Below are positions 26,123 through 54,738 of a stretch of DNA of 64,000 nt, in pieces. The translations under genes and the position numbers were made by a program. Below the pieces are notes generated by a model. That model worked only from the letters and a program-made list of their open reading frames with translations, was not told the DNA's origin and made no database searches. Each line of letters begins with the position of its first letter. Positions within the stretch are counted from its first letter, which is position 1. This DNA comes from Escherichia coli (GTDB lineage Bacteria > Pseudomonadota > Gammaproteobacteria > Enterobacterales > Enterobacteriaceae). Location: the NCBI RefSeq assembly GCF_001677475.2, contig NZ_CP015229.1; one strand, 5' to 3'.

Positions 26123-26383
26123 TAAGTTTACGCATGTCTGATAGAATCTGTAGAACCTGTTTATATAAAAAGCCCCTCAGGAGAGGGGCATGCTTGCATG
26201 GTGCCGGGTGCCTCCCGATGAATTCAGTATCAGTACCCGAATCAGCATAATAAAGGAGCAGAACAGAAACATACATCACTCATATGCCCACCACCCGGGG
26301 GGATCCACCATGCAAATTTTTTCTAACAAAAGCTCCGTCAACCAGCAATGCCCAATCAACTTAATTGTGATGGATTTAACATT

Positions 26384-28067: not shown

Positions 28068-28142
<75 letters not shown>

Positions 28143-28145
28143 ATA

Positions 28146-28221
<76 letters not shown>

Positions 28222-28335: not shown

Positions 28336-28885
28336 TTAATTATCTGCCAACGTAACTATTTCACCCGCAGTATGCTCAAAACGTTCAGACTCAAGTTCAA
28401 CGCTTAACGCCATGCCCCCAAGTGCCAGCGCTGCTTTTATTATGGAGCCTGATCCCATGAAAAAGTCGGCAACCAAATCTCCCGGACGCAAACAGAATGC
28501 GCTCTGTTGCCGGGAAATACGCCCGCAGGCTTTCCTTGTTGCACCCGTTCCAGCGCCCGGACAGCTTCGCCCAGATAATGTGGTTCAGCACATTAAAGCG
28601 CTCACGCATCATGATTTCGATATCAGATGCCAGGCGATGACCACAGAACAGGTAAAGACTTCCGGCGGGTTTTAATACCCACCAGAACTGCGCCAGACAC
28701 TGATCCAGCCATTTCAGGTAATCATCGTCGCCCTTCCACTGGTTATCCCAGCCCTCGGGCTTCACTTTAAAGTATGGCGGGTCTGTGACTATCAGATCGA
28801 CAGAGTTTTCCGGTAAGGTCTGGATAAATTCCAGGAAATCAGCGTTGATTAACTCGCAGCTGGATATTTTTACAGTATTAGCCAT
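28336..28885 (-). pseudogene. DNA methyltransferase (DPPY, beta-class) interrupted by a 1-nt frameshift
   Basis: N-part has DLIVTDPPYF; SAM motif DFFMGSGS and C-terminus lie in another frame after a CCGGG run near 28480. Confidence 0.6.
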
Positions 28886-29035
28886 AGATCAATAAGCACT
28901 TCTCTGATAGGCTCATACCGCTTTTGCGCAAAGCAGATGGGCCTGAGGTTTGCTTGTGACCCCAACGCATGAGCAGATGGCTGGCAGGTGCCGCTAACAC
29001 CCACCAGCCGCCCATTACCACAAATTAAAAAGCCT

Positions 29036-29233
29036 TCACTGCGGAAGGCGTCTGTAACAACCGAACTGATAATCTGCCAGACCCGCCATAACAAGCTGAG
29101 TCAGTATTAACTGGCAGCGCTCGCGTGAAAGGTAAGTATTCTGCGCAATCTCCCCGACGGTCGCCGGTTCGGTGACGCTTAATTCATTAAACACCACTCT
29201 GGCGGTTTCGGTCATATCCTGCTGTTTTAGCAT
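29036..29233 (-). CDS. Small putative HTH protein (ORF extends to 29326)
   Basis: 65 aa from MLKQQDMTETARVVFNELSVTEPATVGEIAQNTYLSRERCQLIL... with SD AAGGGA. Confidence 0.4.
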   Translation of the reverse strand: MLKQQDMTETARVVFNELSVTEPATVGEIAQNTYLSRERCQLILTQLVMAGLADYQFGCYRRLPQ

Positions 29234-29521
29234 GTCTTTTTCCCTTTTCTGGTTAACGTGACATACCAATAACTCTTGTCGAAAAAGCCAGCAAGCAGAA
29301 AGACCAGTATTAATAACCACCAGCACATTTAACGCACTGCGCTACTTTGCGGGCACAAAAAACCCGCTCAGAGGAGGCGGGTTCAGGCTATGCAGTGAAA
29401 TAACCACTCTTAAAAGCATACATGATTTTTTACGTACGTAAATGCTTTGCCGTGCATATTTTTCATGCAAATGTCACATACTGCTATTTTCAGTGTTATA
29501 AATTTAAAGCCATAGAAAAAA

Positions 29522-30340
29522 TCAATTATGTTTTAAGAATGGATAGGTAAAGAATAACAAGTGACACAGATTCAGACCAAAATGGAAAAGGGTTGCCACC
29601 CACAAGCGCCCACTCCACATCCATGACAATCCATACACAACACCAGATAACGTGGCAAATAATACAAGTAAAGCACCACCTGAATAGTGATAAAAACCAA
29701 ACAACAAAGACGCCACAATTAACGCAACCAATGGAGACGTCACTTCTGATAGCCGTGATTGAATATACCCTCTAAATAATGACTCCTCTGCCAGAGACAC
29801 AAAAAACAAATTAGCCAATATAAACTCTGGCAACCACTCTGGAAAATGAATCTCTGGCTTTAACCCACCAAAAAAAACAGCCAAAAACAGGATAAGAGGA
29901 ACAGAGAGCAACAGAGCCGCCCATTTCCACAAAGACACTTCTGATTTCACTTCTTTTTTAAAAAAAGAAGCTGTACACAGGACTAACAAAAATGGCACCA
30001 GCGCTTTATCAAAATTAAAATACATTGTATAGGGAGTGCTTTGAGGTCCGACAGTGACAGACTTTAGCACTACAGGATTGTGAAACCCTGGCCATAAATG
30101 AAAAGATAATGCTATGGCTGATAAAACTATGCCAGCTTCATATATGGATTTAGCCCAGGCGTTATATTTCCAGTTGAACTTCAAAATAATAAAAAAAACG
30201 ATTGTAGCAACAAAAAACAACACCGGCCAATCAATAATATCATTAAGCACAGCCAGGACAACAGACACCGTCAACAATGAAAAAGCCACTACCTTATGCC
30301 AACTGAGAGTTGACAGTGACAGTGCTAACACAATCCACAT
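29522..30340 (-). CDS. CPBP-family intramembrane metalloprotease (Abi/CAAX protease domain)
   Basis: Multi-TM protein with the family motifs EESLFRGY (EExxxR), FGFYH and HFGLN; encoded in AT-rich DNA. Confidence 0.7.
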   Translation of the reverse strand: MWIVLALSLSTLSWHKVVAFSLLTVSVVLAVLNDIIDWPVLFFVATIVFFIILKFNWKYNAWAKSIYEAGIVLSAIALSFHLWPGFHNPVVLKSVTVGPQSTPYTMYFNFDKALVPFLLVLCTASFFKKEVKSEVSLWKWAALLLSVPLILFLAVFFGGLKPEIHFPEWLPEFILANLFFVSLAEESLFRGYIQSRLSEVTSPLVALIVASLLFGFYHYSGGALLVLFATLSGVVYGLSWMWSGRLWVATLFHFGLNLCHLLFFTYPFLKHN

Positions 30341-30494
30341 AAACACTCCTTTTATTTAATGATGAAGATTGATTATCAATATTTTCAATTCACCTGGCAA
30401 CATTTTGTTTACCTTCCATAAAATTCATGACCATCAAAAAAATAAACATATTAATTATAAACACAGAAAACATAACCCTCGTCACTATATATCC

Positions 30495-30869
30495 CTACCG
30501 CATATCCATATCTAACCGGACATTCAGAGCCATAAGCATTCCTTCAATAATACCTTCAGCTTTATAAAGTCTTTTACCAATAAGCCCATCAGAACATCTA
30601 TGCTTACGTGCAAGAGCCATAAATGTCATTCCACCTACGTAATAATCGACCAACAAATCGTGCAAATACTGATTATTCTTGTTTAATCGTGCCATACAGC
30701 CACAAATTATCATGGCGTCATCATCAGAACACTGAGGACGTGATTTCACTTTAGTTGGGATTAATCCTTTAAAACCAGCAGCTATCGAGGACCATGTTAC
30801 ATCTTCATGATTATTTGCTGCCCATGCTCCCCACCGCTCCATAACCAGCTGAATATCACGCAACATCAT
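30495..30869 (-). CDS. Q: Late antiterminator Q (QuuD-like)
   Basis: 124 aa, [34 protein letters not shown]...[16 protein letters not shown] matches the small Q family. Confidence 0.85.
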
Positions 30870-31227
30870 TACATCCTCTTATTACGAATATATTCACGCC
30901 CAGTCGCCCACCGCAAACAGGCAGACCATGCACAATATTGATTTCATCAAACTGCTCGTCGTCTATAAGCAGCCCCGCATGTGTCAGCGCATCCAGCAGT
31001 GCTTTCAGGATATTGTCCAGGTCACGACGGCGCTTATCCGGTGGATCTGCAATAATCTTTATCGCCAGCCTTCCGGACAGGTTTAATTTCAACCGCTGCT
31101 GGCGAACAATGAGCACCACATCACGGCGATAACGCTCACCGGCTTTTGATACAAAATATGTGCTGCCATAACGTCGCCAGTAGGTGTTCACCGTCGGCGG
31201 GTAAGGCAAAACAAACTCTATACGCAT
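30856..31227 (-). CDS. rusA: Holliday junction resolvase RusA
   Basis: 123 aa, catalytic region [30 protein letters not shown]. Confidence 0.85.
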
Positions 31228-33148: not shown

Positions 33149-33304
33149 TTACTCCTCAGATTCGTAAGCTGTGAAGACAGCGACCTCCGTCTGGCCGGTT
33201 CGGATTCGCACCTCGCAGAGGTCTTTCCTCGTTACCAGTGCCGTCACTATGACGGTTAAACAGATGACGATCAGGGCGATTAACATCGCCTTTTGCTGCT
33301 TCAT
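33149..33304 (-). CDS. hokD: Hok/Gef-family membrane toxin (HokD/RelF-like)
   Basis: MKQQKAMLIALIVICLTVIVTALVTRKDLCEVRIRTGQTEVAVFTAYESEE, near-identical to E. coli HokD; longer overlapping in-frame ORF is mok-like. Confidence 0.9.
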   Translation of the reverse strand: MKQQKAMLIALIVICLTVIVTALVTRKDLCEVRIRTGQTEVAVFTAYESEE

Positions 33305-33594
33305 AGCCTGCTTCTCCTTGCCTTTCGGCACGTAAGAGGCTAACCTACATGTGCAAAGCATGAAATTGGCCTCAGATTAATGTTAAGCGTCTTGCCGGAC
33401 GCGTAATGTTAACTGGGGCTTTTCTCTATCTGCCGTTGGTGTTCATGCCCGAGGCAGATAGCCTCAAGCACCCGCTGCAATTCTACTTAACTCTCCTTTT
33501 CCCGCAAACCGTTTTTATCCCCAGCGGCAAATCGAATACACCACCAGCGCCACCGCAAGTGCAATTCCTACCGTTGTGAATGCTTCAGGCCAGG

Positions 33595-40746: not shown

Positions 40747-40799
40747 ATTCTGGTGACATTTGGCGGTATCAGTTTTACTCCGTGACTGCTCTGCCGCCC
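40747..40799 (+). ncRNA. dicF: DicF small RNA
   Basis: TTCTGGTGACATTTGGCGGTATCAGTTTTACTCCGTGACTGCTCTGCCGCCC followed by TTTTT, matches DicF sRNA upstream of dicB. Confidence 0.8.
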
Positions 40800-43977: not shown

Positions 43978-44187
43978 ATGGCTATGAGCAGCTTATTTTT
44001 AACCGAAGATGAATTGCTAATATTAACGGGCTGCAAATATGCAAGCCACCAGCGAAAATGGTTAATGGAAAACGGGCTTCCGTTCTATACCAATCGTAGT
44101 GGCAAACCGATTGTCAGCCGGGATCTATTTACCTGCAATAAAACTTTACCACCACGCGAGGTAGAGCCGAATTTTGGTGCAATCTGA
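43978..44187 (+). CDS. xis: Excisionase-like protein
   Basis: 69-aa ORF immediately upstream of and overlapping integrase start. Confidence 0.6.
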   Translation: MAMSSLFLTEDELLILTGCKYASHQRKWLMENGLPFYTNRSGKPIVSRDLFTCNKTLPPREVEPNFGAI

Positions 44188-45212
44188 TGGGAAGACGAAG
44201 GAAAAATCCTGAACACGAAAAATTACCTCCAAATGTATACCCAAATAAATATAGTTATGTATGGAAACCAACATCCAGAGAATCTGTCACACTAACCGCC
44301 ATCAAGGATGGTTTAGCTGCTTTATGGAAAAAGTATGAGGAAACTGTAAATAATCGCGATCGCGCAATGACATTCGGTCGCTTGTGGGAAAAATTCCTCG
44401 CCAGCGCCTATTACAGTGACCTCAGTCCAAGAACACAAAAAGATTATCTGCAACATCAAAAAAAGTTGCTTGCCGTATTCGGTAAGGTGCCGGCAGATTC
44501 CATAAAACCAGAACACATCCGTCGATACATGGACAAGAGAGGGGAACAGAGTAAAACGCAAGCCAACCATGAAAAAAGCAGTATGTCCCGCGTTTACAAT
44601 TGGGGGTATGAGCGAGGGTACGTGAAGGGTAACCCATGTGCAGGTGTAAGTAAATTCAAGGCCAAAAACCGCGAACGATATGTAACCGACAAAGAATACC
44701 AGGCAGTATTAAGTGTTGCACCTCTTCCTGTTTTTATCGCAATGGAAATTGCCTATCTGTGTGCAGCGAGGGTTTCCGATGTGTTATCACTGAAATGGGA
44801 GCAGATTGGAAACGACGGGATCTTTATCCAGCAAGGGAAAACAGGGAAAAAACAGATAAAAGCATGGAGTCCACGATTACAGGCGGCGATCGAAAAAGCA
44901 AAACAGTTACCAACATCTGCCTATGTAATCAGCAATCAATATGGCAACCGATATATGTACAAAGGTTTTAACGAAATGTGGGTAGAAGCAAGAAATCACG
45001 CAGGCAAAATTTCAGGTATTTTAACCGACTTCACCTTTCATGATCTGAAGGCGAAAGGAATTTCAGACTATGAAGGAAGCAGCCGGGATAAGCAACTTTT
45101 CTCTGGTCACAAAACCGAAGGGCAAGTGCTAATCTATGACAGAAAGGTTAAAGTTTCACCAACACTTGATGTCCCGTTACCTGATAATATTCCAAGAAAA
45201 TATTCCAAGTAA
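44187..45212 (+). CDS. int: Tyrosine integrase
   Basis: 341 aa; C-terminal catalytic region with R...HDLKAKG...GHKTEGQVLIY; 3' end 43 nt from serU. Confidence 0.9.
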   Translation: MGRRRKNPEHEKLPPNVYPNKYSYVWKPTSRESVTLTAIKDGLAALWKKYEETVNNRDRAMTFGRLWEKFLASAYYSDLSPRTQKDYLQHQKKLLAVFGKVPADSIKPEHIRRYMDKRGEQSKTQANHEKSSMSRVYNWGYERGYVKGNPCAGVSKFKAKNRERYVTDKEYQAVLSVAPLPVFIAMEIAYLCAARVSDVLSLKWEQIGNDGIFIQQGKTGKKQIKAWSPRLQAAIEKAKQLPTSAYVISNQYGNRYMYKGFNEMWVEARNHAGKISGILTDFTFHDLKAKGISDYEGSSRDKQLFSGHKTEGQVLIYDRKVKVSPTLDVPLPDNIPRKYSK

Positions 45213-45254
45213 TTCCAAGTGTGATTTTTGTCACTGACTTAATGATGTGTAAGT

Positions 45255-45344
45255 GATTGAATTTTGGCGGAGAGAGGGGGATTTGAACCCCCGGTGGAGT
45301 TGCCCCCACTCCGGTTTTCGAGACCGGTCCGTTCAGCCGCTCCG
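45255..45344 (-). tRNA. serU: tRNA-Ser (anticodon CGA), serU; prophage attachment site
   Basis: 90-nt tRNA with long variable arm, anticodon loop CUCGAAA, GGTTCAAATCC T-arm, CCA end. Confidence 0.9.
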
Positions 45345-45447
45345 GCATCTCTCCGTTCAGATGGTTGCCATGATGCCAGGAAATTTGGCATTTTAACAGT
45401 CCCTGTCCGTGCAATTTTGTTCAAGTGACGAGTTTGCGAGCAAAACG

Positions 45448-46421: not shown

Positions 46422-46734
46422 AATTCTAAAAATTCGCTTTTTTAGCGCAATGTCACTGACCTTAGTTGAACATTGTTTTTTAACGGATAGCGGTTTTTTA
46501 ACATCTTAAGCGCCCTCGACCTTTATGGTTGAGGGCGTTTTGCTATGAACGCCATCACCATTTTCCCCTCGATTATAAAACTTGAGTTATTCAGTAGTCT
46601 CCCCTCTTGCAACTCACACCCAAAACTGCCTAACGAAAAGTTATTAATTTTCAATCATATTGCTATCAGGATTTACATTTTTTCGCTGTGCTAGAAAGGG
46701 CGCATTTATGTTAGCTCGTTCAGGGAAGGTCAGC

Positions 46735-54738
<8,004 letters not shown>

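Follow-up and report, generated by a model that had tools for sequence, protein, structure and literature searches.

A CPBP-family intramembrane protease gene conserved together with antiterminator Q in lambdoid prophages of Escherichia coli, and its proposed position upstream of the late promoter

A gene of a lambdoid prophage was analysed in a stretch of 64,000 nucleotides of Escherichia coli DNA (assembly GCF_001677475.2, contig NZ_CP015229.1; hereafter the window), in which the prophage adjoins tRNA-Ser(CGA) with its integrase at 44187..45212. The gene (29522..30340, minus strand; hereafter CPBP) encodes a complete CPBP-family (Rce1-like, type II CAAX) intramembrane glutamic protease of 272 aa with all the catalytic-motif residues present, and it is a single-gene accessory cassette of the prophage in a conserved block with the gene for a QuuD/Q21-type antiterminator, Q. 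By comparison of sequences, the stretch 29442..29357 is strongly inferred to be the PR'/qut/tR' cassette of this prophage (late promoter, site of Q and terminator, respectively), with CPBP nested between Q and the cassette, and CPBP is most likely upstream of PR' and outside the Q-antiterminated late transcript. As the role of the gene, a protective lysogenic-conversion protease, with immunity to a peptide toxin as the favoured form, is proposed tentatively, at a confidence a little short of even, in which the Q-CPBP-PR' layout is also included.

The assignment to the CPBP family, which had been made in the original prediction from the catalytic motifs, was borne out by profile, motifs and fold together. 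PF02517 (Rce1-like) matched residues 171-260 of the protein (i-Evalue 8e-20; model positions 3-92 of 93), and the three motifs of the family, E185-E186-xxx-R190, F214-xxx-H218 and H253-xxx-N257, were all invariant in an alignment of 42 homologues, as were H81, G85, N88, Y107, N109, D111 and K112 of a subfamily-specific loop. The spacing from the E motif to the H motif is 33 residues, the same as in Rce1. The AlphaFold2 model built from the 42-homologue alignment had a mean pLDDT of 94.6 and a pTM of 0.91. By Foldseek against the PDB, this model matched archaeal Rce1 (4CAD, prob 0.96) and S. aureus SpdC (6U0O, prob 0.99), with SpdC, in complex with SagB, giving the best TM-score (0.47-0.50) and nothing else being matched by fold at E<1; a sequence search of the PDB gave no match, and these relatives were reached by the fold search only. 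Catalysis is probably retained, as judged from the sequence, because the catalytic motifs are intact and invariant. An attempt to place the active site relative to the membrane by means of the helix list was dropped, the length of the motif-1 helix leaving the result ambiguous. Among the PHROGs, the protein belongs over its full length to phrog_13291, which has no assigned function, and its nine NCBIfam matches (myxosortase/CTERM-sorting subfamilies and MroQ) were all far under the respective cut-offs (best, 45.5 bits versus 435).

The open reading frame (ORF) starts with the ATG at 30340, which is preceded by a Shine-Dalgarno sequence (AAAGGAG) and gives 272 aa, with the GTG at 30346 also possible as the start codon, and it stops at 29522. 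Homologues were found in three further modules at amino-acid identities of 84% (E. albertii/E. coli), 62% (E. coli) and 59% (Shigella), respectively, and the length was exactly 272 codons in all four modules. Pairwise ratios of nonsynonymous to synonymous substitution (dN/dS) among the four modules were 0.12-0.23, at dS values of at least 1.4 (synonymous sites saturated), and the 272-aa ORF was intact in 16/16 loci checked. CPBP is under purifying selection, and the view of it as a functional accessory gene holds on both counts. The same data bear on whether the gene is a hitch-hiking passenger, kept by entrapment between Q and the qut site and having no present function. Its nested position would give linkage without selection, no phenotype has been reported (the literature search on ECs1085, its name in strain Sakai, came back empty), and a truncated 220-aa call after a T8 run, with 313 member sequences, also counts for it; the low dN/dS over saturated synonymous divergence, the lack of indels in 272 codons, the invariant motifs and the existence of cargo-less Q-PR' junctions, by which deletion is seen to be possible, make this the least probable of the readings considered. 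The T8 homopolymer lies within the coding sequence at 30191..30198 (minus strand; codons ~48-51), and the 220-aa form in the protein database starts at the TTG right after it (P0004, 313 members, short contigs only); this form could represent frameshift alleles or assembly errors.

The CPBP locus was present at at least 93% identity in 564-571 of 5,426 complete E. coli genomes (about 1 in 10), and among the matches listed many were Shiga toxin-producing E. coli (STEC; O157:H7, O145, O111, O103) and cattle isolates. The gene is named CPBP family intramembrane glutamic endopeptidase by PGAP, and its copy in prophage Sp4 of O157:H7 Sakai is ECs1085 ('phage CAAX amino terminal protease family protein'), which adjoins the Q gene ECs1084. 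Among the accessory genes of cattle-associated E. coli it is a common one which already has an annotation, and it is not new. No study of ECs1084-1086 was found in the literature, and none of the publications found linked CPBP proteins of E. coli prophages to a phenotype. Among the phage genomes of INPHARED, no record with the CPBP gene was found, and only the backbone downstream of it was matched. Homologues of ~50% identity were found in Dickeya, Pantoea, Serratia, Providencia, Hafnia, Enterobacter, islands of Salmonella and Pseudomonas as stand-alone genes with differing neighbours; the family would therefore act through one gene and be horizontally mobile. No chromosomal (non-prophage) homologue of E. 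coli turned up in the search, which was not exhaustive.

The antiterminator gene Q (30495..30869, minus strand) encodes a 124-aa protein of the QuuD/Q21 family, as assigned by its ORF and its homology to Q21 (phmmer against the PDB, Q21 structures 6P18/6JNX, E=2.6e-8; no match in NCBIfam), and it is followed by an AT-rich spacer of 154 bp and then by CPBP, with RusA (31227..30856, minus strand) at the upstream edge. The original prediction had placed CPBP and a 65-aa helix-turn-helix (HTH)-like protein together on an AT-rich insert downstream of Q. Its AT-richness was confirmed for CPBP (GC 0.392, and 0.385 at third codon positions, GC3, versus 0.50 for the whole window) and not for the 65-aa gene (GC 0.51, GC3 0.56), which lies outside the low-GC unit; nor does this unit begin downstream of Q, as it spans from the start of Q to just short of the terminator, taking in Q (GC 0.405, GC3 0.344) and both intergenic regions (0.27 between Q and CPBP, 0.32 between CPBP and the terminator). 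The values for the surrounding genes were 0.495 for RusA (GC3 0.492), 0.507 for a methylase fragment (GC3 0.601) and 0.533 for DUF968. The term insert is also misleading, as Q shares the composition of CPBP and is inherited with it: CPBP was present in 571/591 E. coli genomes which matched this Q allele, and the remaining 20/591 matched part of Q only, at ~86% identity, which indicates a different Q allele. The 84%, 62% and 59% homologues of CPBP each stand directly after a Q gene of 122-124 aa (PF06530), with varying flanks (RusA or DUF968 upstream, holin or TerB downstream), and Q diverges together with CPBP among the modules (79-81% identity). Q and CPBP are an old two-gene block under purifying selection and not a recent insertion.

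When the four modules were aligned 3' of CPBP, one invariant island was found in divergent surroundings, namely ATTTACGTACGTAAA-8 nt-TATnnT-TAAnAnTGnTT-hairpin. The corresponding elements of the window, all on the minus strand, are the palindrome TTTACGTACGTAAA (29429..29442), which begins 79 nt downstream of the CPBP stop, overlaps a -35-like TTTACG and is proposed on its conservation as the binding element of QuuD-type Q; a -10-like TATGCT (29420..29415), the proposed PR' -10; a TAAGAGTG box (29412..29405), the proposed start region or pause element; and an intrinsic terminator, ACCCGCC...GAGCGGGT followed by T6 (29357..29383), proposed as tR' and also as the terminator of CPBP mRNA. The stretch from the CPBP stop to the terminator hairpin is non-coding (136 bp). 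The conserved form of the element can be written as TTTACGTACGTAAA-N8-TATNNT-TG.TAAGAGTG, followed by a short leader and the intrinsic terminator.

This element always stands after Q genes of the QuuD/Q21 type. By BLAST, the stretch after CPBP was matched in 3,044 of 5,426 E. coli genomes, most of them without CPBP, and the TATnnT was conserved in the copies so found. In DLP12 of K-12, GTTTACGTACGTAAAAAATTGGTTATGCTGTTAAGAGTGG and a terminator precede the first lysis gene, essD, by ~170 nt, with IS5 and nmpC (opposite strand) between quuD and this element. IMG/VR was scanned with the pattern TTTACGTACGTAAA-N8-TATNNT; 120 loci were returned (L020-L139), and wherever a locus extended far enough, a QuuD-like Q (60-99% identity) preceded the motif on its strand. 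A cassette of the QuuD type was seen at L019 4501..4582, and the hexamer pair of the proposed PR' was scored as a promoter in L015. In 21 distinct variants, the columns of the TG.TAAGAGTG box, which lies outside the search pattern, were invariant or at least 90% conserved; a small hairpin and AGCTTA were conserved too, and a GC hairpin with a U-rich tract was found in nearly all of the aligned variants. Related phages with other Q alleles follow the same plan: in phiSTEC1575, a lambda-like PR' (TTGCAT-17-TAAGAT, then AACGATGGG) precedes a hairpin homologous to the terminator of the window, and in phiP27 and Stx2_EH2201 a different dyad takes the equivalent place before the common TTAAGAGTGGTTA..terminator block.

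The alternative for the late promoter, which was favoured at first, is that PR' directly follows Q at TTGCCA-17-GATAAT; CPBP would then be the first gene of the Q-antiterminated late operon and be made mainly late, and 29383..29357 would be a tR' lying downstream. This site is the best sigma-70 match of the region and stands just after Q, as PR' does in lambda and phage 21, and its spacer (30372..30400) holds the tandem ATTGAAAAT/ATTGATAAT, faintly like the Q21 half-sites ATTGAGCA/AATGAGCA; the latter likeness is probably due to chance in AT-rich DNA. This placement of PR' was rejected on the comparative survey of the TTTACGTACGTAAA element: what varies together with QuuD-type Q across the types of cargo is TTTACGTACGTAAA..TAAGAGTG, downstream of CPBP, which abuts Q in cargo-less phages and the lysis genes in DLP12, whereas the sequence upstream of CPBP is unconserved in the 62% and 59% modules. 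PR' at the site directly after Q is therefore considered very unlikely, and PR' downstream of CPBP is retained.

The leader of the cassette folds at -22.5 kcal/mol (z=-3.1). Straight after the TAAGAGTG box lies a small putative hairpin (29391..29409, minus strand; alignment columns 36-51), for which the pairs GTGG..TCAC, GTGA..TCAC and TGAC..GTCA were seen among the variants; it seems to be kept by compensatory changes and may point to a structured leader RNA. Rfam at gathering thresholds gave nothing at the PR'-tR' leader, and the idea that this leader is a known anti-sRNA (an RNA directed against a small RNA, sRNA) such as AgvB found no support there; the StxS paper holds nothing on Sp4. In phiSTEC1575-Stx2k (L004 2300..3020), two copies of the same terminator hairpin flank a small lipoprotein-like cargo gene after the lambda-like PR', an arrangement which points to tR' itself as a possible second site of insertion.

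How far the motif lay from the end of Q in the IMG/VR loci depended on the cargo between them, with discrete classes of length. The distance was 27-69 bp where the slot was empty, ~800-820 bp with a 197-aa protein (phrog_34160, without an assigned function), ~884 bp with an Ant-type antirepressor, ~1,053 bp with CPBP, ~1,550-1,700 bp with the NmpC/Lc porin on the opposite strand, ~1,580 bp with an antirepressor and a secreted protein, and ~1,730-1,746 bp with Ant and Arc/Mnt-like genes. The NmpC/Lc porin was the commonest cargo, and the antirepressors were of three Ant kinds; between Q and the equivalent place, phiP27 has a GIY-YIG family protein and Stx2_EH2201 has nothing. Lc is a lysogenic-conversion envelope protein, which offers an analogy by position for the role proposed for CPBP, and the slot often carries genes which change the envelope or serve in phage conflict. 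Q and its own site would be inseparable by recombination without carrying CPBP along, and the nesting of CPBP between them would therefore explain why Q and CPBP are so tightly linked and both low in GC. A wider reading takes the gap from Q to PR'/qut as a cargo hotspot (CPBP, NmpC/Lc porin, antirepressors, GIY-YIG of phiP27), whose genes are locked to the Q/qut specificity pair and expressed independently of late antitermination, and takes CPBP in it as a factor for immunity or exclusion, made up of one orphan gene and typical of the prophages of enterohaemorrhagic E. coli and STEC, with a defined membrane or peptide substrate; in this full form it is conceivable but rather doubtful.

A candidate sigma-70 promoter for CPBP itself, TTGCCA-17-GATAAT, is predicted at 30372..30400 (minus strand), ~30 nt upstream of the CPBP ATG. 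It matches 10/12 positions of the sigma-70 consensus; 14 related loci retain it, with TTGCC(A/T) or TTGTCA-17-GATAAT, and the 62% module has ATGACA-17-TATTGT at the equivalent position. No terminator-like site was found in the Q-CPBP interval; therefore, the transcripts of Q should run through CPBP and stop at tR'. On these sequence features, CPBP probably has its own promoter and may also be read through from Q. In the lysogen, CPBP would be transcribed from its own sigma-70 promoter (30400..30372), with the mRNA ending at tR'; after induction, it would also be transcribed by read-through of the early transcript which makes Q, before the Q-antiterminated late transcript. If this promoter is real, the lysogen would make CPBP as a moron of the classical kind, its transcript being terminated at tR'. 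Expression at induction had earlier been ascribed to the place directly after the antiterminator; with CPBP most likely upstream of PR', read-through of the early/Q transcript would take the place of that explanation.

The pairing of CPBP with the HTH-like gene did not stand either. The ORF of 65 aa exists (29036..29233, minus strand) as the first gene past the terminator, with phrog_331 as its match (E=1.4e-37), and its HTH nature is weakly indicated: TrmB, a winged-helix family, was its best Pfam match at E=0.0086, the others were above 0.1, NCBIfam gave no match, and some copies are called TrmB family by PGAP. The promoter-like element and the intrinsic terminator at 29383..29357 stand between it and CPBP. 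In phiP27, several Stx2 phages and some NmpC-cargo prophages, as in the window, no other ORF comes between the terminator and this one; the same terminator precedes it in CPBP-free Stx phages and in prophages with NmpC as cargo, and it was found in many phages and prophages without CPBP. It is a part of the phage backbone with no specific tie to CPBP. A terminator-like hairpin, GCCTTCCGCAGTGAAGGC with a T-rich tract (29032..29049, minus strand), overlaps its stop codon.

For the function of CPBP, the proposed mechanism is that the protease, placed in the inner membrane and needing no partner, would act on a peptide or a membrane protein and thereby protect the lysogen. The most likely role would be immunity to a membrane-targeting peptide toxin, in the way of McsI against microcin S. 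For McsI, a CAAX-family protein, protection of E. coli from microcin S has been demonstrated (PMC3316575), and in Gram-positives the immunity to bacteriocins, their processing or their sensing has been linked to CAAX proteases (PMC9298176). Of the two associations named in the original prediction, that with bacteriocin immunity thus keeps its precedent in E. coli, without a toxin gene adjoining either CPBP or its chromosomal relatives, and that with abortive infection found no support, as none of the PADLOC-DB v2 defence models had a family matching the CPBP protein at E<=0.1.

The close alternative would be the exclusion of superinfecting phage, in which CPBP would cleave or block an inner-membrane component of DNA entry or a phage protein and so protect the lysogen. 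An accessory gene of a prophage with a likely lysogen promoter would suit this role, as would a single-gene, horizontally mobile family, and the other common occupants of the slot, the NmpC/Lc porin and antirepressors, are genes of conflict between phages. The lack of a PADLOC match, a literature in which no CPBP protein was found linked to tested phage defence, and the stable chromosomal homologues in housekeeping neighbourhoods (Dickeya, Providencia, Pseudomonas) count against it, and phage exclusion is considered possible but unlikely.

A non-proteolytic, regulatory part was also weighed, in which the protein, like SpdC or Abx1, would bind a host membrane enzyme or a sensor kinase as a membrane partner and retune envelope physiology or virulence regulation. 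The best TM-score match being SpdC in its SagB complex (TM 0.47-0.50) is in keeping with this, the family-specific loop (H81, PGFxN88, Y107-N109-D111-K112) could serve as a docking surface, and the P. aeruginosa homologue stands between gpmI and an EnvC-like M23 peptidase with ctpA. The catalytic-motif residues, invariant in the 42 homologues, argue for retained catalysis, and no conserved neighbour was found in Enterobacterales; a partner of this kind is quite unlikely. The P. aeruginosa homologue (L140 6001..6819) has 61% identity over 74% of the query, and its neighbourhood, which besides the M23 peptidase and ctpA includes a polysaccharide deacetylase gene, hints at a link of the homologue to the control of cell-wall hydrolases.

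Several results weigh against protection from a peptide toxin and against parts of the layout on which it was placed. No toxin or bacteriocin gene was adjacent in any context examined, the neighbours being Q, the PR' region, the HTH gene and the methylase; CPBP showed no specific relationship to McsI, and no McsI-like relative was among the tblastn matches on plasmids, the sole 'plasmid' match of E. coli being an EDL933 record of 287 kb; and CPBP matched no PADLOC defence model. As for the promoter of CPBP, no equivalent was found when the 59% module, the most divergent one, was scanned, and promoter-like matches in this AT-rich region were not above those in shuffles (10 versus 6.8+/-3.0). 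As for PR', TAAGAGTG lies only 2 nt past TATGCT, whereas the pause element (SDPE) of phage 21 is farther from its -10, and the assignments of the -10, the start and the pause within the proposed PR' are uncertain. For the TTTACGTACGTAAA motif, part of the invariance across the IMG/VR loci is circular, as these loci were collected by searching for it; the copies derived by BLAST and the unsearched TAAGAGTG box are spared from this circularity.

If CPBP gives immunity to a toxin of the microcin type or blocks other phages, it would add to the fitness of STEC in the bovine gut and would also be a rare Gram-negative CPBP protease with a known role. Its placement would tell the position of the late promoter in QuuD-type prophages, DLP12 of K-12 included, and genes 'after Q' are not necessarily controlled by Q, which matters for the prediction of cargo induced alongside Shiga toxin.

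Further features were recorded in the prophage and at its edge. Past the 65-aa ORF, a split or truncated DNA methyltransferase gene (28336..28885, minus strand) is followed by tRNA-Thr(UGU) and tRNA-Gly(UCC) of the late region (28068..28221, minus strand); the methyltransferase locus is annotated as an incomplete pseudogene in strain GB089 and is an intact 1,059-bp gene in phiP27 and Stx2 phages, and in Stx phages tRNA-Ile/Arg or Met/Arg stand ahead of stx at the position matching the tRNA pair of the window. Rfam gave a full-length match to the STnc100 sRNA (26167..26342, minus strand; 93.7 bits), with a strong terminator at its end; it is flanked by a TerB/DUF3927 pair and an IraM-like gene and stands upstream of the holin region. 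In its early region, the prophage has a hok/sok toxin-antisense locus (33149..33473, minus strand; 112.8 bits to Rfam sok, and a Hok-like ORF) and a DicF sRNA (40748..40799, plus strand; 77 bits). The end of the prophage with the integrase and tRNA-Ser(CGA) is at 44187..45354, and beyond it (46660..54738) there are three tRNA-Asn genes and an ORF of 2,692 aa, probably a giant adhesin.

CPBP and its setting were finally compared with the systems known. With Rce1 (4CAD) and PF02517 it has in common the Pfam match, the motifs EExxxR, FxxxH and HxxxN and the predicted fold, whereas the identity to Rce1 is only 17% and the N-terminal half (1-150), with its PGFHN...YxNxDK loop, is specific to the enterobacterial subfamily; a prenylated substrate, as far as we are aware, is not to be expected in bacteria. 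McsI of E. coli G3/10 is likewise a CPBP-family protein of E. coli, and it protects singly against a membrane-active peptide by experiment; it differs in being of 216 aa, plasmid-borne and beside its own microcin and exporter genes, whereas the prophage CPBP has no toxin neighbour (PMC3316575). SpdC/LyrA (6U0O), PlnI, SagE and SilX, membrane proteins of envelope or peptide biology, have the fold of CPBP (SpdC prob 0.99, TM ~0.5), but SpdC/LyrA has 16% identity to it, and the roles of Gram-positive Abi/CAAX proteins need partners or bacteriocin loci, which are absent at the CPBP locus.

For the setting, the nmpC/lc moron of DLP12 and related lambdoids takes the same slot as CPBP, from a QuuD-type Q to TTTACGTACGTAAA..terminator before the late genes, but it encodes an outer-membrane porin on the opposite strand which is unrelated to the CPBP protein. 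The cassette of phage 21 (OL657228.1; Yin et al. 2019, bioRxiv 10.1101/651190) has a Q homologous to that of the window and an identical order of elements: its -35 begins 7 nt past the Q stop, its Q-binding element (QBE) lies between the -35 and the -10, its SDPE, TAAGCTG, is at +2..+8, and its terminator ends by +50. The TAAGAGTG box of the window resembles this SDPE, so that a TAAG-type box, in the window near the proposed start, stands in both ahead of a short leader which ends at a terminator, with a different distance from the -10-like hexamer in the window. The binding site of phage 21 is formed by the direct repeats ATTGAGCA/AATGAGCA, while that proposed in the window is the palindrome TTTACGTACGTAAA, and the phage 21 cassette abuts Q, whereas in the window the CPBP gene intervenes.

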